The notes under the pieces are model-generated. The model was not told the origin of the DNA and ran no database searches. It was given only the letters and a program-made list of their open reading frames with translations. From positions 605,366 through 669,365 of the forward strand of contig JACKGF010000001.1 of the NCBI GenBank assembly GCA_020632095.1: DNA of 64,000 bases, in the 5' to 3' direction. Of the stretch, positions 1 through 41,085 are shown in pieces. Each line of letters starts with the position of its first letter. The first letter of the stretch is position 1. The stretch is from Candidatus Nomurabacteria bacterium (lineage in GTDB: Bacteria; Patescibacteriota; Minisyncoccia; Phycocordibacterales; UBA918). The translations under genes and the position numbers were made by a program.

Positions 1-305
1 CCTGCCACGCACTGTCTCGATGTGGTTTTACCACACCGGTTAGAGACTACCAAAATGAAGGGAAGTATTTCACTGGCGACTCCACGGTACCCGAAAGCCC
101 GCTTCAAAGTCTTCTTCCTATGCTACGCATCAAATCAATAGCCCCAATACGAAGCTACAGTAAAGCTCCTGGGGTCTTTTCGTCTAACTGCAGGTACCCG
201 GCATCTTTACCGGGATTGTATTTTCACCGAGCAGGTCCTCGAGACAGTTTCCCACTCATTACGCCATTCGTGCACGTCGGAACTTACCCGACAAGGAAAT
301 ACGCT

Positions 306-525
306 CTATATTTCCTTCTCCTACAACTTATTTGTAGACATTTCACAATAGGACTCTATCTTAACCCGTTATTCCGAAGAACACTTGGGTCTGCAACATT
401 TGGTCTCTTGTTGGTTGCATTTGGATTATGTTTACATTTCTGCAAACAAGGTAACTATGGCTAGGCTGTTTAACCTATAACCGTTCCAATCCGTCGAGCG
501 CACTATTTATTGGATAATGTGCTCG
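306..525 (-). other. 220-nt insertion in 23S exactly after the U equivalent to E. coli U1931. Candidate small ORF-less group I intron or intervening sequence.
   Basis: rRNA-sense flanks read TAATCGTTCTAAGGT | insert | AGCGTATTTCCTTGTCGGG, against E. coli ...CGGUCCUAAGGU AGCGAAAUUCCUUGUCGGG. The upstream exon ends in U and the insert ends in G (...GGAAATATAG), as a group I intron would. L1931 is a known rRNA intron site. Confidence 0.5.
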
Positions 526-731
526 ACCTTAGAACGATTATAGTTATCGCTGACATTTACCGGGGCTTATACAGTCCAGCATAACAATCCGAAGATCATT
601 ACACCCCCCGTATTTAACCTTCCGGCATAGGTCAGGCGTCACCCCCTATACTTCCACTTTCGTGTTTGCAGGGAGCTGTGTTTTTGTTAAACAGTTGGCA
701 GGAAATCTTTCGCTGCGGCCCAATACACCAC

Positions 732-1029
732 TTTAGTCTCAACCAGGTTTGATTTTTAACTAAAGTACAAATCGTTGCCTCAAACTAAAACCTTGATTCA
801 AATTTCAGTGTGACAACATCAATAGTTCCGCCGGATTCAATATGCTTTCCAGTCAAATCTCCCAAGGGAGAGATATCTGCAGTAAAGCGAAACTCACAAC
901 TATCGCCATTGGCATCTACGCCACTAACGATGAATGTTCCGTTCGGATTGTCGAGACTTCCTTGCAATAAAGTTATCTCGACTGACCCTATTATTTTCAA
1001 TTTCATTCCACTTTCTCCTTTGTTGAGAA
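732..1029 (-). other. Expansion/insertion of about 300 nt in the 23S domain IV region (E. coli ~1700-1760, helix 63 area), closed by a long-range stem.
   Basis: Flanks 713-731 (ctgcggcccaatacaccac) and 1030-1048 (gtggtgtattgggcagacc) are inverted complements. Conserved 23S sequence resumes on both sides. E. coli has about 80 nt here against about 350. Confidence 0.55.
785..1006 (-). CDS. 73-aa ORF inside the 23S insertion, preceded by a canonical Shine-Dalgarno sequence. Function unknown; coding status uncertain.
   Basis: Minus-strand sequence upstream of the ATG reads aaaGGAGaaagtggaATG. The ORF lies fully within the insertion and on the same strand as the rRNA. No homing-endonuclease motif recognised. 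Confidence 0.3.
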   Translation of the reverse strand: MKLKIIGSVEITLLQGSLDNPNGTFIVSGVDANGDSCEFRFTADISPLGDLTGKHIESGGTIDVVTLKFESRF

Positions 1030-1573
1030 CAAAGTGGTGTATTGGGCAGACCTTATCCCTAAGTTACGGTCGCTTTTTTGCCGAGTTCCTTGAGGACCTC
1101 TCACTCGTTCGCCTTAGTCTTCTCGACTCTACCACCTGTGTCGGTTTGCGGTACGGAACCATTATGCTTAACCCAAACGAAGTTTTTCTCGGAAGCGTGC
1201 TCCCCACATCGGATCGGCCGTAGCCTCACCTTCAGACCCTACTCGGACTTGTGCCTCCCGGATTTACCAAAAAGACATCCTCATAGTTCCAACTCCAATC
1301 CAATAAGGAGCTGCGGGTACAACGCTCCGTCCCTCCATAGGAACATAACAGTGTGCAGGAATATTAACCTACTATCCATCGGGTCCCCCATTCGGGATTC
1401 CCTTAGGACCGACTAACCCTTCGCTGATCAACATCGCGAAGGAAACCTTGGTATTTCGGCGGGCAGGGTTCTCACCTGCCTTGCGGTTACTTGTGCCGGC
1501 ATTCTCACTCCTCCTCGCTCCACCGCGGCTCTCGCCTTGGATTCATCGCAGAGAAGGACGCTCTCCTACCACT

Positions 1574-1737
1574 CGTAGGCTTCATTGAGGATTCAAGCAT
1601 TGCTTGAATCAAGAAAATATTGATGAGGTAGATGGAATCGAACCAACGACCTTTACCTTTACAGGGTAACGCTCTACCGTCTGAGCTATACCTCGTCTAA
1701 TATTTTCTCAAAGAACTTTTCCTCAATGAAGCCTACG
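1574..1737 (-). other. Helix-45-type intervening sequence in 23S. An 18-bp stem encloses about 130 nt and replaces the short E. coli hairpin at ~1170-1190.
   Basis: Arms 1574-1591 (cgtaggcttcattgagga) and 1720-1737 (tcctcaatgaagcctacg) are perfect inverted repeats. Flanks align to E. coli CTGCGG / GGTAGGGGAGCG. Helix 45 is a classic site for RNase III-excised intervening sequences. Confidence 0.6.
1623..1695 (-). ncRNA. tRNA-like cloverleaf (anticodon GUA, class I-like with a 5-nt variable loop) inside the helix-45 intervening sequence. No encoded CCA.
   Basis: Sense CGAGGTA-TA-GCTC-AGACGGTA-GAGC-G-TTACC-CTGTAAA-GGTAA-AGGTC-GTTGG-TTCGATT-CCATC-TACCTCA-T. Canonical D-arm (A14, G18 G19). U33 and purine 37 present. 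Perfect T-loop TTCGATT. Acceptor 6/7 bp and T-stem 4/5 bp. Confidence 0.4.
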
Positions 1738-1821
1738 AATCCGCAGTTTCGGTAATATACTTGAGCCCCGATCATTTTCGGCGCAAGGACTCTCGACCAG
1801 TGAGCTATTACGCTATCTTTA

Positions 1822-1856
<35 letters not shown>

Positions 1857-2417
1857 TGAGGAATCCTCACCTCCTCATTTTGCACTGAGTATATATTTTG
1901 GGACCTTAACTGGCGATCTGGGCTGTTTCCCTTTCGACCAATGGAGCTTCGCCCCCATAGTCTAACTGCCGCGTTCTTGACCTGCTGGTATTCGGAGTTT
2001 GATAAGAAAGACGAGATTTCTCCCTGTTCTTTCTTTCCAGTGCTCTACCCCCAGAGGGAACACGCGACGCCAACCCAAAAGCTGTTTCGGAGAGAACCAG
2101 CTATTACGGAATTCGATAAGCTTTTCACTCCTTACCACAAGTCATCCGATGATTTTGTACGGTCAACCGGTTCGGGCCTCCACGACCTATTACAGTCGCT
2201 TCACCCTGCTCATGGCAAGCTCATCCCGCTTCGGGTCGTACCCCTACCCTATATTCGCGCTATTCACGCTCGCTTTCACTACGCCTCCGTGGGTTGCCAC
2301 TTAGACAAAGGATAAAGGTACACTCGCCGGCTCATTCTTCAATAGGCACGCCGTCGCCCCGCAGGGCTTCGACTCCTTGTAGATGTATGGTTTCAGATCT
2401 ATTTCACTCCCCTCTCC

Positions 2418-2463
<46 letters not shown>

Positions 2464-3013
2464 TTCAAGAATATTTAGCCTTACCAGTTAGTACTGGCAG
2501 ATTCACCCGAGCTATTCATGTCTCGGGCTACTCAGGAGTAGAACCAAAAGAGTCAGATACATTTCGAATACAGGGCTATTACCTACTGGGGCCACGCTTC
2601 CCAACGTGTTTTCCTATATATCTGTTTTGTAACTCTCCGCAACTAAATGCAGATTCTATCCTACAACCCCATACATATAAATACGTATGGTTTGGGCTTC
2701 TCCCGTTTCGCTCGCCGCTACTTAGGGAATCGCAAGAACCTTCTTCCTGATTATAATGGCACAACCGAAGTTGTATCTAATCAGAAAGAAAATTCCGTTT
2801 ATTGCTTTCTATTCCTACAGGTACTGAGATGTTTCACTTCCCTGCGTACGCTCCCTCATACAAGGGTCACTGCCGATGACAGTGGGGTTTCCCCATTCGG
2901 ACATATCCGGGTCAAAGGTTATTTGGCACCTCACCGAATCTTATCGCAGCCATATCACGTCCTTCATCGCTTCTTGAAGCCTAGGCATCCACCATACACC
3001 CTTTGTTCCTGTA

Positions 3014-3057
3014 AGGAACGTTGAACACCATCGCTACAGCGATGGTGTTCAACGTTC
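3014..3057 (-). other. Perfect 20-bp hairpin immediately 5' of mature 23S (leader / processing element).
   Basis: ggaacgttgaacaccatcgc-tac-agcgatggtgttcaacgttcc. Confidence 0.5.
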
Positions 3058-36785: not shown

Positions 36786-37364
36786 TTATAAATGACTAAC
36801 TGTAACTGCCTGTGTATAGAGTTTTTCAATTTGTCTATATATATCATCAGAATATTGTTTAGACACATCATCTGGATCAACACTCTGTAAGTTAGCAGGG
36901 ATATTATTTATATCAACATAACCTAACTTAGCTAAGATATGCACTTGCAGTGCCATTTCTAAAAAATTTCTTTCTGTATGAACTTTGATTAATTCTTCTA
37001 AACTAGCCAAAGTGTAGTTAAATAATTCTTGAGCTTGCTCTTCTCCTTTTAGAAAGCGTCTCAGTAGTCGAAACAAACTTACCACGCTACCGCGGGATTC
37101 TTTGTCTCTGGCTTCATGATAGTAGTTTTTCTGCGCTTCGATACTACCAATTTTCCAACTATTCTTACCCTTAACCAAAGACACCCGAACTAGAGAGAAT
37201 TCCTGTAGCGCGTAACGCTGACGCGAACGCTCTTCGCGCACACTGCGGGCGTCTGCATAAAGCATGCCAGCTTCGCGGGTGAAAAGTAGGTACGAACGGT
37301 CAGCAGTGTTGCGATTGAAGACACCGCACACCAACGCCTTGGTTGTGTACGTCAGGTAAGCCAT
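36786..37364 (-). CDS. recO: DNA repair protein RecO-like (short form).
   Basis: N-terminal OB-fold pattern ADARSVREERSRQRYALQEFSLVRVSLVKGK. Confidence 0.5.
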   Translation of the reverse strand: MAYLTYTTKALVCGVFNRNTADRSYLLFTREAGMLYADARSVREERSRQRYALQEFSLVRVSLVKGKNSWKIGSIEAQKNYYHEARDKESRGSVVSLFRLLRRFLKGEEQAQELFNYTLASLEELIKVHTERNFLEMALQVHILAKLGYVDINNIPANLQSVDPDDVSKQYSDDIYRQIEKLYTQAVTVSHL

Positions 37365-40300
37365 TATTGCTTAGCGATAGTGAAGCTAAATTGGAAGTCA
37401 CCGGCCGTTAATTCTTCCCCTTCGGTAACCTCGGCAAAAGTGACAATTGGAGCACCGACGGTTTTGGTCAACATTTCTTTATAATCATTGACCGCTTTTT
37501 CTCCGGCTTCATTAGTACTAATAGTGAGAGTTATTTTATCCTGCGGTTCCAGACCGGCAGTTTTGCGCTGCCCCTGCACCGCCCGCATCAGTTCACGTAC
37601 GGCGCCTTCGGTTATTAATTCTGACGTAAGAACAGTATCAATCGCTATTAACTCAGATACTTTATAGGACTTTGCGTTCAACTCATCGAGCACAACTTCC
37701 TGTAAATCTGGAGACAATTCAGGACCAGACACACTAGCAATTGGTTGTCGGACTTTAATATTAGCTTTAGTACGAGCTTCGAGTGCAGTCGTCACTAATT
37801 CCCTGACCACCTGCATTTCTTCGGTTATTACCCCGTCAACTTCCTTATTCTCTGGCCACGCTGCCAAATGTACGCTTTCAGCATCACCCTCTTCCTTCAC
37901 CGCTCGCCACAAATAATCAGCGTAAAAAGGCATCACCGGTGCCATCACTAGCGCGAGTGTCTTCAGTGTATAGCGAAGAGTCGACAAAGCTAAAGCTTTA
38001 TCAGCCACATCATCTCCTTTCACTCGGTCACGCGAACGACGCAAATACCACACTGACAAATCATCTATGAAGTCGGTAATTGGTCGAGTTGCTTTGTCGA
38101 GTTCGTAGTTTTTATAACCAGCAGTTGTTTCATTGATCAGCTCGTTAAGGCGCGCGACAATCCATCTATCAAGTACATGACTGGAATTGTCGCGCGCCTT
38201 TGTCCCATCCGCAAACATCTCATACATCGCCAACACATTGTGTAGCCGACCGAGGTTTTTACGCTGCTGTTCAATTACTTCCTTTTCAGTAAAGTTAAAA
38301 TCCTCACCTTTTACTGCTGTCGACGACAATAAGTAAAAGCGCATAGCATCAGCTCCAGCTGTATGTGCCACGTCCATTGGGTCAGGATAATTCTGCAATG
38401 ACTTACTCATTTTACGACCATCCTCTGCAAGAACAGTTCCGTTTACTACTACGTTCTCAAAAGGTGACTTACCGAACAACGCAACACCCAATACAATCAG
38501 CGAATAAAACCAACCGCGGGTTTGGTCGAGTCCTTCGGCAATGAATTTGGCTGGAAAATTTTGCTTAGTAAACTCGGCTTCATTTTCACCCATGTAATGA
38601 TGTTGTCCATAAGGCATCGAGCCACTCTCAAACCAGCAATCAAACACATCTGGCACTCGCTCCAACTTCACCCCTCCTTCAAACAGTTTAACCTCATCAA
38701 TGTACGGCCGATGAAAATCAAGCTCGAAGTTATCGTTGCGGGGATACGGCGTATACCCGAGTGGACGCACTTCTGCGTTACCTAGGTAAGCATTCCGACC
38801 GTCAAAGTATTTTTCGGCTTGCTCAGCATCAAAGCCCCAAGCTGCACACTCAAGGGCAAACATCGGCCCAGCATGACTCACAATCAATATTTTCTTCCCT
38901 TGGTAAGTCCTTTCTAAATCCAGCAAGAATTCTCCCATCCGCTTTTGCACATCACGCCGATTTTCCGAACCAGGTAGATTCTTAGTAAACCGCTCGGCCC
39001 AATCAGCAAACTGATCGTTGTATTCCGGCCACTTCTTCCCTTCCAAATCGTCTGCCAAATCTAATTCTCTAATCCGGTCATCCTCAATTATTTCAGCTTG
39101 TGGTAACTTTGTCGCCACTACTTCGGCTGTTTGTTTGGTACGCTTAAAGCCAGAATGGATGATGATGTCGATGTCTTTAGTGATAGCTTCAGTCGCCAAC
39201 AAGGCTTGCTCTTGCCCCAACTCAGTCAAATTATCGTCATTGTCCTTATTGCAACTAATCACATCAGCGATGTTACTTTCACTTTGTCCGTGACGCATCA
39301 TTAAGTAGGTATTGCCACCTTTGGGTACAAATTTTTGCAAATCAGCGAGCGAACCAATCACTTTGTATTCTTTGGTTTCCGGATTACGCCAAATCGGTAA
39401 CGGTGCGCCCCAGTAGCGCTGACGACTTATCGCCCAATCGCGTGCGCCCTCCAACCACTTACCAAAGCGATTGGTTCCGACGTGATCCGGCACCCAGTTC
39501 ACTTTATTGTTGGCCGCCACCAAATCCGCTTTAATTTTGGTCACCTCCACAAACCAAGACGTGGTGGCGTAGTTCAAAAGCGGAGTATCACACCGCCAAC
39601 AGTGCGGGTAGCTGTGCGTGATATTTTCTTTCTTGAGAATTTTTCCAGCCGTTTGGAGGGCTTTAAGGATTTCAATATCAGCATCTTTATGATTGACTCC
39701 AGATTCCTCATCGTCTTTTGGCTTTACCAACTGCCCAGCAAAGTCAGTCACAAAATCCATAAAATGCCCCGCTTCGTCAACGTGATGAATTATCGGCACA
39801 TTGTGTGCTTGCGCCAACTTCATGTCGTCATCACCGTAAGCAGGAGCAATATGGACCGCCCCCGTTCCTTCTTCGCCCAGCTCAACATAGTCAGCATGGT
39901 AAATAGTCCAAGCGTTTTCTTTGCCTTCGAAGTCTTGGTTCTGCAGGTATGCAAACGGCGGTTGGTACTTTTTGCCAACTAATTCGGAGCCTTTGAAAAT
40001 TATTCTTTCATCTTCTTTCGGTAATCCAGCTATTTGAACCATTCTGTCTCTTGCTATGACAAAACTTTCTCCAGCATTAGCATTAATTTGAGATATGACA
40101 TTTCCATTTTCAATAGTCCCAGATTCATAACCAGTAGCTACATCTTTTACAGTCACCTTTACATAATCAATTTCATTATGAACCGCAGCAGCCATGTTGC
40201 CAGGTAGTGTCCATGGTGTTGTTGTCCATACAAGCAAAAAGGTGTTGTTATCAGTTACAAAATCACTAATCTGTTGACCAGCATCAAGCTTCAACTTCAC

Positions 40301-40966
40301 CGTCACCGCAATATCTTTGATATCCCTGTACCCTTGATTAACCTCAAAGTTTGACAAAGTCGTCCCACAACGTGGACAAAGGTGCATACTTTTGAAACCT
40401 TCATACACCAAACCTTTTTCGTGTAGCGACTTAAAAACCCACCAGACACTTTCGGTGTAGGTGCTATCCATGGTTTTGTAATCGTTCTCCATGTCGGCAA
40501 AGCGGCCCATCCGCGGGATGATACGCTTCCAGTCGTCGGCGTATTCCATCACGGCGTCACGTGCTTGTTCATTAAAATTCTTGATACCGTACTCTTCGAT
40601 ATCGCGCTTAGTCGCCAAACCAAGCTTTTTCTCAATCAGGTTCTCGAGGGGCAACCCATGACAATCCCACCCCCACTTCCGCCGCACACGGTAGCCATTC
40701 ATCGTCCAAAAACGCGGAATCGCGTCCTTGATAGTTCCTGCTAAAATATGCCCGTAGTGTGGCAAGCCAGTCGCAAACGGTGGCCCGTCATAAAATACAA
40801 AATCTCCCTTCGGCTCCACTCCCGCTGGAGCCGCCAAACTTTTATTAAAAATATCCGCCTCTTCCCAAAAAGCCTGCACCGCTTCCTCGCGCAAAGCGAC
40901 GTCGGACTTCGGTGTCTCAGCTACTACTTCGACGCTATCATTTTCTCGATGGTGTTGTTTTTTCAT
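37364..40966 (-). CDS. ileS: Isoleucyl-tRNA synthetase with an inserted histidine-phosphatase (PGAM-like) domain.
   Basis: HYGH class I motif. WGWDCHGLPLE. WAISRQRYWGAPLPIW. KMSKS. A ~170-aa domain with LMMRHGQSESN ... IVSHAGP lies between the Rossmann core and the VFDCWFESGSMPY segment. Confidence 0.85.
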   Translation of the reverse strand: MKKQHHRENDSVEVVAETPKSDVALREEAVQAFWEEADIFNKSLAAPAGVEPKGDFVFYDGPPFATGLPHYGHILAGTIKDAIPRFWTMNGYRVRRKWGWDCHGLPLENLIEKKLGLATKRDIEEYGIKNFNEQARDAVMEYADDWKRIIPRMGRFADMENDYKTMDSTYTESVWWVFKSLHEKGLVYEGFKSMHLCPRCGTTLSNFEVNQGYRDIKDIAVTVKLKLDAGQQISDFVTDNNTFLLVWTTTPWTLPGNMAAAVHNEIDYVKVTVKDVATGYESGTIENGNVISQINANAGESFVIARDRMVQIAGLPKEDERIIFKGSELVGKKYQPPFAYLQNQDFEGKENAWTIYHADYVELGEEGTGAVHIAPAYGDDDMKLAQAHNVPIIHHVDEAGHFMDFVTDFAGQLVKPKDDEESGVNHKDADIEILKALQTAGKILKKENITHSYPHCWRCDTPLLNYATTSWFVEVTKIKADLVAANNKVNWVPDHVGTNRFGKWLEGARDWAISRQRYWGAPLPIWRNPETKEYKVIGSLADLQKFVPKGGNTYLMMRHGQSESNIADVISCNKDNDDNLTELGQEQALLATEAITKDIDIIIHSGFKRTKQTAEVVATKLPQAEIIEDDRIRELDLADDLEGKKWPEYNDQFADWAERFTKNLPGSENRRDVQKRMGEFLLDLERTYQGKKILIVSHAGPMFALECAAWGFDAEQAEKYFDGRNAYLGNAEVRPLGYTPYPRNDNFELDFHRPYIDEVKLFEGGVKLERVPDVFDCWFESGSMPYGQHHYMGENEAEFTKQNFPAKFIAEGLDQTRGWFYSLIVLGVALFGKSPFENVVVNGTVLAEDGRKMSKSLQNYPDPMDVAHTAGADAMRFYLLSSTAVKGEDFNFTEKEVIEQQRKNLGRLHNVLAMYEMFADGTKARDNSSHVLDRWIVARLNELINETTAGYKNYELDKATRPITDFIDDLSVWYLRRSRDRVKGDDVADKALALSTLRYTLKTLALVMAPVMPFYADYLWRAVKEEGDAESVHLAAWPENKEVDGVITEEMQVVRELVTTALEARTKANIKVRQPIASVSGPELSPDLQEVVLDELNAKSYKVSELIAIDTVLTSELITEGAVRELMRAVQGQRKTAGLEPQDKITLTISTNEAGEKAVNDYKEMLTKTVGAPIVTFAEVTEGEELTAGDFQFSFTIAKQ
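38807..39310 (-). other. Histidine-phosphatase superfamily (phosphoglycerate-mutase-like) domain embedded within IleS (aa ~553-720).
   Basis: RHG catalytic motif (RHGQSESN) near aa 558. Downstream SH(A) motif (VSHAGPMFA) near aa 697. Confidence 0.6.
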
Positions 40967-41044
40967 ATGAATTAACTATGTATATCAGACATAAATAAAG
41001 CATGTATATCAGACATGCAAGGCCATAATAGCATAAAAAGAGTT

Positions 41045-41085
41045 ATGGCCCACAATCAAGGATTGTGGGCCATATATTTTTTACC
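41045..41085. terminator. Hairpin plus T-run.
   Basis: ggcccacaatc-aagg-attgtgggcc followed by atatatttttt. Confidence 0.45.

Follow-up and report, generated by a model that had tools for sequence, protein, structure and literature searches.

A histidine phosphatase domain nested in the isoleucyl-tRNA synthetase of a Candidatus Nomurabacteria bacterium and its Paceibacteria relatives

The 64,000-nucleotide stretch of DNA analysed here, called the window below, comes from a Candidatus Nomurabacteria bacterium (assembly GCA_020632095.1, contig JACKGF010000001.1, positions 605,366 to 669,365). On its minus strand it carries ileS, which encodes a type-2 (eukaryote/archaeal-like) isoleucyl-tRNA synthetase (IleRS) with a domain of the histidine phosphatase superfamily in its middle. 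An earlier note, written from the DNA letters, had proposed such a domain inside IleS. The proposal is borne out by a match to the Pfam family His_Phos_1, by the boundaries obtained from the IleRS structure 8c8u, by the conserved catalytic residues and by a confidently predicted fold, and we regard it as virtually certain that the nested architecture is real. Its elements are the following, in window coordinates and with residues numbered along the ileS product.

37364..40966, minus strand: ileS, a single uninterrupted open reading frame (ORF) of 1200 aa, the end coordinate including the stop codon
39329..40966, minus strand: IleRS residues 1-546, aligning to residues 12-477 of 8c8u and 13-491 of yeast IleRS
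38726..39328, minus strand: inserted module, residues 547-747, found neither in solved IleRSs nor in the insert-less IleRS of locus L001
37367..38725, minus strand: IleRS residues 748-1200, aligning to residues 485-851 of 8c8u and beyond
38807..39304, minus strand: Pfam His_Phos_1 (PF00300), residues 555-720, E = 2e-31
40748-40759, minus strand: HYGH motif, residues 70-73, from a motif scan
38399-38413, minus strand: KMSKS motif, residues 852-856, from a motif scan
39287..39295, minus strand: RHG motif (Arg558, His559, Gly560), His559 being the predicted phospho-accepting nucleophile
39140..39142, minus strand: Arg609, second phosphate-binding arginine
39065..39067, minus strand: Glu634, predicted proton donor
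38873..38875, minus strand: His698 (in VSHAGP), second catalytic histidine

The whole 1200-aa protein scored 849.4 bits against the NCBIfam isoleucine-tRNA ligase model TIGR00392 (cutoff 621.4), and the ValRS, LeuRS and MetRS models each scored under their own cutoffs. In the Pfam annotation tRNA-synt_1 (E = 1e-135) is interrupted by His_Phos_1 and followed by Anticodon_1 (residues 933-1076, E = 2e-34) and by the C-terminal domain DUF5915 (residues 1077-1199). The protein is collinear with the type-2 enzymes Priestia megaterium IleRS2 (8c8u, E ~1e-195) and Thermus thermophilus IleRS (1ile, E ~1e-183), with which it shares the Rossmann fold, CP1, CP2, CP3, the anticodon-binding domain, the DUF5915 C-terminal region and the signature motifs. 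Residues 1-546 comprise the Rossmann N-half, the CP core, the CP1 editing domain, CP2 and the first half of CP3, a beta hairpin and a helix terminating in ...SLADLQKF. The chain resumes at residue 748 with the second half of CP3 (ELDFHRPYID...), followed by the Rossmann C-half (DVFDCWFESGSMPY), the anticodon-binding domain and DUF5915. Among 36 orthologues His70, Gly72, His73, Lys852, Ser854 and Lys855 are invariant and Met853 nearly so; the CP1 editing motif TTTPWT (248-253) does not vary, and in GTGAVHIAPAYGDDD several residues vary little or not at all. The synthetase hallmarks, namely HYGH, KMSKS, the CP1 editing motifs and the anticodon-binding domain, are thus all intact, and charging of tRNA-Ile is the predicted activity of the 1200-aa protein, encoded by the only IleRS-like ORF of the window.

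In the alignments, the step from residue 546 to 748 corresponds to the step from 477 to 485 in the 8c8u chain and from 491 to 498 in yeast IleRS. About 200 residues therefore replace a loop of about 6-8 residues, which identifies a discrete insertion; 8c8u and 1ile have about 8-10 residues at this place. The insertion point falls midway within the CP3 subdomain according to the published domain scheme of the yeast and Candida IleRSs, where CP3 comes after the CP2-CP3 linker (ARDWxxSRxRYWG) and where zinc content and topology of CP3 are reported to differ among IleRSs (PMC7955072, PMC7191050). The inserted region is not the usual zinc-binding CP3 element, an ordinary explanation that the earlier note had kept in view. 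That note had also drawn attention to an unusually large spacing between two conserved blocks, which it put at about 230 residues against about 50 normally. The spacing is indeed large, with corrected counts of 253 residues between ISRQRYWG and VFDCWFESGSMPY here and 57 in the insert-less L001 IleRS. The first block, given in the note as WCISRQRYWG, is present at residues 511-520 and reads WAISRQRYWG, one residue off; VFDCWFESGSMPY occupies residues 774-786.

The module consists, in order, of an entry linker (VPKxGN), the histidine-phosphatase domain and an exit linker (F-T-P-x-P-H-N-D). Conservation among close orthologues is higher in both linkers (VPKSGN on the entry side, FTPxPHND on the exit side) than in the module on average, which suggests that the module may be docked on CP3 in a fixed manner. 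His_Phos_1 scored 109.6 bits against a gathering score of 21.7, at residues 555-720, very close to the 550-720 or so anticipated for PF00300, and the two motifs that had prompted the proposal, RHGQSESN and VSHAGP, lie at residues 558-565 and 696-701. We followed the catalytic positions through 385 modules sampled from every architecture encountered and through 80 fused loci returned by a scan of GTDB genomes. The Arg and His of the RHG motif are found in 380 of the 385 modules, the other 5 being N-terminally truncated fragments, and in all 80 loci. Arg609 is present in 385/385 modules and 80/80 loci, and His698 in 383 modules (the exceptions being one gap, in a fragment, and one Tyr) and again in 80/80 loci. 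The position of Glu634 is occupied by Glu in 372 modules, Asp in 10, Gln in 2 and Ala in 1. Within the 36 close orthologues Arg558, His559, Asn565, Ser605, Arg609, Glu634, Glu668, Arg676 and His698 are invariant. Mean identity of the insert in this set is 51%, against 87% for the Rossmann N-half; the catalytic, editing and anticodon-binding regions are 67-87% identical, and the C-terminal domain, at 52%, is similar to the module. The modules of two Zambryskibacteria-type loci (L076 and L078) are about 30 residues shorter and miss part of the cap subdomain, and they retain the Arg-His pair, Arg609 and His698.

Modelled by itself with 69 standalone relatives, the module reached a pLDDT of 89.7 and a pTM of 0.87 and has the alpha/beta fold of the superfamily. 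In a full-length AlphaFold model computed from a shallow alignment (pLDDT 70.9, pTM 0.47) the synthetase core was poorly predicted and the module block had a pLDDT of about 81-94; because of the pTM of 0.47, neither the inter-domain geometry nor the spacing of His559 and the synthetase active site was used. The closest structures are PspA (4ij5), PhoE (1h2e), the glucosyl-3-phosphoglycerate phosphatase GpgP (6s2q/4pz9), the riboflavin-pathway histidine-family phosphatase 9mmh and CobC (6e4b), at 21-29% identity. All of these closest solved structures are small-substrate phosphomonoesterases. Unlike PspA-, PhoE- and CobC-type enzymes, which are free-standing and have known metabolite substrates, the present one is embedded in, or encoded beside, an IleRS. 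The module is a complete PhoE/PspA-like histidine phosphatase of branch 1 of the superfamily (PF00300), and from the conservation of its active site it is very probably catalytically active.

The label 'PGAM-like' used in the earlier note is right as to the superfamily and misleading as to the mutase. In cofactor-dependent phosphoglycerate mutases (dPGM) the second catalytic histidine belongs to a mutase-type H-G-N sequence, from which the VSHAGP of the module differs. Every mutase equivalog model scored far under its cutoff on the module, and we therefore read it as a phosphatase. More generally the module fell under every curated NCBIfam equivalog cutoff: it did not reach the profile score of the PspA-type metal-independent phosphoserine phosphatase, nor those of the CobC alpha-ribazole phosphatase (70.4 against 162.9 bits for TIGR03162, 44.8 against 250 for PRK15004), and it is not a member of the SixA family. 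A cofactor-independent phosphoglycerate mutase is listed in one Parcubacterium reconstruction (PMC5220378). In PHROGs the sole match was a phage family of unknown function.

The same architecture recurs throughout the relatives. PF00300 was found in 120/120 of the best database relatives, which come from NCBI, JGI, ENA, Logan and Tara assemblies, are collinear with the window protein at 65-72% identity and measure 1123-1223 aa. In a scan with one genome per species, at least 583 GTDB species genomes encode a relative, and each of the 80 returned loci, including one on a closed 994,774-bp chromosome, has one IleRS ORF with the module at the same site; the scan was seeded by a full-length orthologue alignment and its sample is biased towards IleRSs with the DVFDCWF motif. 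The survey of related IleS architectures that the earlier note had advised thus returned the same collinear insert everywhere in these two sets. Base composition is even, with a GC content of 0.460 in the insert and 0.459 in the rest of the gene, and of 0.467 and 0.451, respectively, at third codon positions (GC3). Together with the independent collinear assemblies, this effectively excludes a frameshift, a chimera or a recent foreign insertion, and disposes of the mis-assembly that the earlier note had kept open as a possible refutation. It was also considered whether the insert could be an inactive scaffold domain or an intein-like element removed after translation. The loss of about 30 cap-subdomain residues in L076 and L078 could point to the former, and the His-Asn of the exit linker superficially resembles an intein C-terminus. 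The catalytic residues are nevertheless kept in essentially all 385 modules, the shortened ones included, no Hint/intein domain was detected, the residue after His-Asn is Asp and not Cys, Ser or Thr, the fold is that of His_Phos and the GC content of the insert is not that of a foreign mobile element. Scaffold, intein and assembly artefact are effectively refuted, and we give them next to no credence even taken together.

The record titles of the relatives name Candidatus Nomura-, Adler-, Taylor-, Zambryski-, Wolfe- and Paceibacteria, Minisyncoccia and the Parcubacteria group. In a large Paceibacteria clade (Parcubacteria, candidate phyla radiation (CPR)) the insert is an old trait that has become fixed, and far from being rare it has been sitting, without comment, in hundreds of public Patescibacteria genomes. 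Many fused loci are labelled 'uncultured Candidatus Saccharibacteria', a label that we distrust, and one fused IleRS (L080, QYPD01000003.1) belongs to a metagenome-assembled genome labelled Spirochaetia. These labels probably reflect binning contamination or generic naming, and not an occurrence outside Paceibacteria.

Relatives of the module were collected by an exhaustive search with the insert alone among 1.84 billion cluster representatives, which gave 483 matches below 1e-10; what is said here of the module family rests on the best 150 of 6071 relatives. These are mostly IleRS proteins or fragments, with a module identity of only 30-48%, so that the fusion family is old and diverse. Nearly all of them are either embedded in an IleRS or short proteins of standalone size. 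The closest free-standing relatives are Patescibacteria proteins of about 190 aa annotated 'histidine phosphatase family protein' or 'PhoE'. Those compared (P0187, and P0344 and P0377 of Candidatus Staskawiczbacteria) are 30-38% identical to the insert, others up to about 40%, and they share its invariant residues, including a family-specific Asn six residues before RHG. They differ from it in forming a polypeptide of their own instead of an inserted domain.

In 6/7 cases examined the standalone gene (hp) adjoins ileS, with argS on the other side, and in 5 cases (L001, L005, L006, L089 and L090) the order argS-hp-(x)-ileS is found on one strand. The complete IleRSs beside hp (L001, L089, L090) are without insert. 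At L001, argS-hp-ileS has intergenic gaps of 3 nt and 1 nt, and the genes further downstream (RecO, DUF11-like, class II aminoacyl-tRNA synthetase (aaRS)) follow in the same order as in the window. Conversely, no separate hp gene was found near the fused ileS at the 80 GTDB loci, and argS lies upstream of ileS on the same strand in 52 of them. The separate and inserted forms are thus complementary. Several variations were observed at the hp loci. A gene of the CYTH family (triphosphate tunnel metalloenzyme) separates hp from ileS in L090 (5570-6160, plus strand), and a 330-aa protein without Pfam match does so in L089 (5814-6806, plus strand); in both, an AA_kinase-family gene, probably UMP kinase, lies upstream of argS. 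In L003 (2682-5609, minus strand) ileS is convergent to hp and consists of two consecutive ORFs of 412 aa and 554 aa, with the break between the equivalents of window residues ~456 and ~467, just past the editing domain; either the IleRS is truly split or the 5.6-kb metagenome contig carries a frameshift.

Some IleRSs hold 2, 3 or 4 modules, as confirmed by Pfam. Insertion sites in the multi-module and alternative-site variants (P0161, P0147, P0185, P0198, P0253, P0262, P0267 and P0271-P0277) were assigned by local alignment of the flanks to the synthetase core, and five insertion points were obtained: D at ~477, A at 545/748 (the site of the window), A' at 759/767, B at ~786-806 and C at ~920-932, in window numbering. 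P0267 (1419 aa, seen on six contigs, the longest of 1.06 Mb) carries modules at B and C while site A is empty, and P0262 similarly has none at the site of the window. Copies within one IleRS share only 30-40% identity, and none of them has lost the catalytic set. The module was seen in none of the equally adjacent ArgRSs. In an approximate tree of the IleRS core (neighbour-joining with modules masked, midpoint-rooted, no support values), two of the three insert-less IleRSs nest among the site-A IleRSs and the multi-module variants form one nested clade. With the hp gene beside insert-less ileS on the one hand and 2-4 modules at up to five sites on the other, the partnership between this phosphatase and IleRS is old and recurrent.

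Such a partnership could be a matter of chance. The module would then be a passenger, a housekeeping phosphatase for a sugar, amino acid, flavin or nucleotide phosphate, with a job unrelated to IleRS. An ancestral argS-hp-ileS operon would have given rise, by a rare in-frame rearrangement, to an insertion into a permissive CP3 loop, fixed by drift in small symbiont populations, and later intragenic duplication and relocation would have produced the multi-copy forms. Few events would be needed, since the multi-module variants form a single clade in the core tree. The fold class, that of small-substrate phosphomonoesterases, agrees with this view, as does the fact that few parts of the protein are as little conserved as the module (51% against the 67-87% quoted above). 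Moreover, the CP3 of IleRSs varies in structure and is tolerant (PMC7191050), and unrelated genes are often fused in these genomes, for instance TsaC to MGMT or to a DNA glycosylase. A passenger accounts less well for five insertion points that are all in IleRS and never in the equally adjacent ArgRS, for the near-exclusive IleRS-embedded or standalone-sized occurrence among the best 150 of 6071 relatives, for short and conserved linkers and for an active site kept intact in all copies across a long divergence. The nesting of two insert-less IleRSs with adjacent hp among the fused ones, in a neighbour-joining tree without support values, likewise suggests repeated interconversion, unlike a single accident. 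On this evidence we hold the passenger explanation to be unlikely, if by no means negligible. That the phosphatase is functionally coupled to IleRS and not there by accident is the side to which we lean: the tie is deduced from the three genomic forms (adjacent gene, one insert, 2-4 inserts), from the five positions in IleRS and none in ArgRS, from the conserved linkers and from the long maintenance of every copy.

The polypeptide would be bifunctional, charging tRNA-Ile and hydrolysing a small phosphorylated substrate. Hydrolysis would proceed through phospho-His559, with Arg558, Arg609 and His698 binding the phosphate and Glu634 acting as the acid; this bifunctionality is a prediction from the conserved residues of both parts. 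The activities suggested in the earlier note, on a nucleotide, a phospho-intermediate or a charged-tRNA analogue, are speculative. All 20 aaRSs release pyrophosphate (PPi). We propose that the module could be a tethered product-clearing enzyme for the adenylation reaction, its main candidate substrate being the PPi formed in Ile + ATP -> Ile-AMP + PPi and an alternative one a phosphorylated nucleotide by-product. Local removal of the product would pull amino-acid activation forward. The flexible position and variable copy number of the module make a diffusible small substrate likelier than a geometrically demanding one, and removal of PPi or of a by-product is favoured because adenylate formation with PPi release is the one theme found among the other fusion partners of related modules. 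Related modules are fused to TsaC/Sua5, a PPi-releasing, adenylate-forming enzyme, in 4 clusters, and to ATP sulfurylase in P0270 (3 members, 114-kb contig). The CYTH triphosphatase-family gene between hp and ileS of one genome (L090) was also counted in favour of product clearance. ATP sulfurylase is joined to canonical inorganic pyrophosphatase domains in some eukaryotic lineages, a functional analogy in which a PPi-releasing enzyme is likewise attached to a remover of its product. Within the histidine phosphatase superfamily, hydrolysis of P-O-P bonds has precedents in EhHAPp49 (PMC7926622) and in the phosphatase domain of PPIP5K.

Several observations weigh against this reading. IleRS is the sole synthetase with the module, MetRS, the class II aaRS and the neighbouring ArgRSs being of ordinary size, and the structures closest to the module all act on phosphomonoesters. 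The pyrophosphatase precedents found belong to branch 2 of the superfamily and none was found for branch 1; we know of no branch-1 histidine phosphatase that acts as a pyrophosphatase. The fusion to TsaC is weak evidence because TsaC is joined to many unrelated partners. In Patescibacteria TsaC/Sua5 (P0410-P0526, relatives of P0225) is most often fused to an MGMT-type DNA_binding_1 domain, and further partners are TruB, a 2H/cyclic phosphodiesterase, a DNA glycosylase, GNAT, NUDIX and a histidine phosphatase, a range that shows how cheaply genes fuse in these genomes. In the ATP sulfurylase case (L088, 7001-9536, plus strand) a related module is fused N-terminally to PUA_2 and ATP sulfurylase, directly followed by a sulfotransferase gene in a glycosyltransferase-rich polysaccharide cluster. 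The arrangement suggests a role in the turnover of 3'-phosphoadenosine 5'-phosphosulfate (PAPS) and 3'-phosphoadenosine (PAP) or of PPi, and a PAP phosphatase would fit the ATP-sulfurylase/sulfotransferase context equally well. Operon adjacency in compact genomes may be historical and not functional, one standalone homologue is not adjacent to ileS at all, and the inter-domain geometry is not derivable from a full-length model with a pTM of 0.47. Tethered product clearance is accordingly put forward here as a tentative best explanation as a whole, and it is doubtful that the module specifically clears PPi or another product of the reaction.

The location of site A in CP3, directly after the CP2-CP3 linker, raises the alternative that IleRS serves as a platform for tRNA-Ile on which the module strips a 3'-terminal phosphate or pyrophosphate from A76 before charging. 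The lesion would come from a nuclease, from an opened 2',3'-cyclic phosphate or from a toxSAS-type toxin, and the module would provide a built-in repair or antitoxin step. This would account for a single synthetase carrying the module. We know of no damage specific to tRNA-Ile, which counts against it. The yeast CP2-CP3 linker helps to form the reveromycin pocket, which overlaps the place taken by the tRNA's 3'-CCA on superposition of a LeuRS-tRNA complex (PMC7955072), and toxins pyrophosphorylating particular tRNAs at their 3'-CCA exist, FaRel2 selecting tRNA-Gly and tRNA-Thr. Related modules are also fused to TsaC, itself fused in addition to TruB and to 2H phosphoesterases. The insertion points are however scattered, with CP2 on one side of the catalytic domain and CP3 on the opposite one (PMC7191050), and the IleRS-tRNA structure paper describes only a few acceptor-stem contacts with the catalytic domain and attributes none of the tRNA contacts to CP3. 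The fold class speaks against a tRNA substrate as well. The module is acidic (net charge about -10), as is the rest of this IleRS, a point listed against tRNA-end healing that is itself uninformative on RNA binding since the charge tracks genome composition. Finally, no credible match to a defence-system family was obtained: the PADLOC models did not match the insert, and gave a single weak, implausible match (E = 4.6e-4) with the standalone P0187. Healing of tRNA ends seems improbable to us, yet together with the passenger explanation it is a serious rival of product clearance.

The insertion points all lie in the catalytic body and flank the KMSKS region. In a signalling role the module would dephosphorylate a phosphoprotein (phospho-His, -Asp or -Ser) depending on the status of tRNA-Ile or isoleucine that IleRS senses, or else remove an inhibitory phosphate put on IleRS by a HipA-like kinase. 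Gcn2, a kinase combined with a HisRS-like domain, offers an analogy, the superfamily includes the protein phosphatases SixA, PGAM5 and Sts, and one standalone homologue adjoins a response-regulator gene. Against this, no conserved kinase or phosphotransfer partner appeared in the neighbourhoods examined, and a signalling function looks very improbable.

Aminoacyl-tRNA synthetases are among the most conserved enzymes, and to our knowledge those of bacteria seldom acquire further catalytic domains, and hardly ever within the catalytic body. The principle of an added catalytic domain is shared by the NCBIfam family NF040702 ('IleRS, N-acetyltransferase domain-containing'), to which the window protein does not belong (315 bits against a cutoff of 1999 for this IleRS with a GNAT domain). 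An accessory branch-1 histidine phosphatase is likewise found in PRK07238, the Rv2228c-type bifunctional RNase H/acid phosphatase, which scores 70 bits to the insert. Judging by model names and match positions, the accessory domains of both are apparently arranged end to end, whereas here the domain is nested and can occupy several sites. Compared with other synthetases bearing accessory domains, the present case is unusual in being nested in the catalytic body, in its multiple alternative sites and in its class-wide breadth. Public annotations call these proteins 'isoleucyl-tRNA synthetase', 'class I tRNA ligase family protein' or 'hypothetical protein'. None of the NCBIfam models reported for this protein describes the architecture, none of the solved IleRS structures compared has the insert, and neither targeted full-text searches among about 8 million papers nor the titles and abstracts listed by a broader CPR search gave a description of a phosphatase-bearing IleRS; the feature thus appears to be undescribed in the literature.

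At least 583 species-level genomes of ultra-small uncultured bacteria keep an apparently active phosphatase attached to IleRS, physically or genomically, in three interchangeable forms: an adjacent gene, a single insert or multiple inserts. A functional coupling would reveal an unrecognised requirement of isoleucine charging, for which product removal, tRNA-end repair and signalling are the candidates, and would provide a natural domain-insertion set for the tolerance of a class I synthetase to large inserts. Were end healing true, aaRSs would have a new kind of quality-control or repair step besides their known editing functions. A mere passenger, on the other hand, would be a striking case of neutral domain nesting in reduced genomes, and domain- or KO-based annotation could miscount an IleRS-embedded domain as a gene for a phosphoglycerate mutase or phosphatase. 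The feature is directly testable with recombinant protein.

The CP3 halves that flank the module (39329-39430 and 38640-38725) contain the region of the zinc knuckle. Unlike 8c8u and 1ile, whose CP3 has a CxxC...CxC knuckle, the clade of the window (146 sequences) has lost all four Cys. The knuckle is retained in insert-less relatives (e.g. L001:8572-11367), and 11 divergent insert-bearing IleRSs keep both knuckles, which places its loss after the insertion and means that this loss is not a necessary correlate of it.

The immediate surroundings of ileS in the window comprise two further features.

36786..37364, minus strand: recO-like gene, directly downstream, its ATG overlapping the ileS stop by 1 nt
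41044..41074, no strand assigned: strong bidirectional, GC-rich terminator-like hairpin of 14 bp, between ileS and the upstream gene

The stretch from this hairpin to the ileS start codon showed no T-box and no other leader of Rfam, and the window holds no second histidine-phosphatase ORF. Downstream the order is ileS, recO-like gene, DUF11 surface protein and class II aaRS, the same as after the insert-less ileS of L001. The other neighbours are ordinary housekeeping genes (MetRS, serine hydroxymethyltransferase, dUTPase, thymidylate kinase). At its other end the window opens inside a 23S rRNA gene (1-3015, minus strand), in which positions 1-2265 of the Rfam model extend over 3015 nt, leaving about 750 extra nt. 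No group I intron or further family was detected in this span. It contains, on the same strand, a tRNA-Tyr(GTA) gene called at 1622-1695 by both ARAGORN and Rfam (65.6 bits); it would be unusual for a tRNA gene to lie within a 23S insertion.

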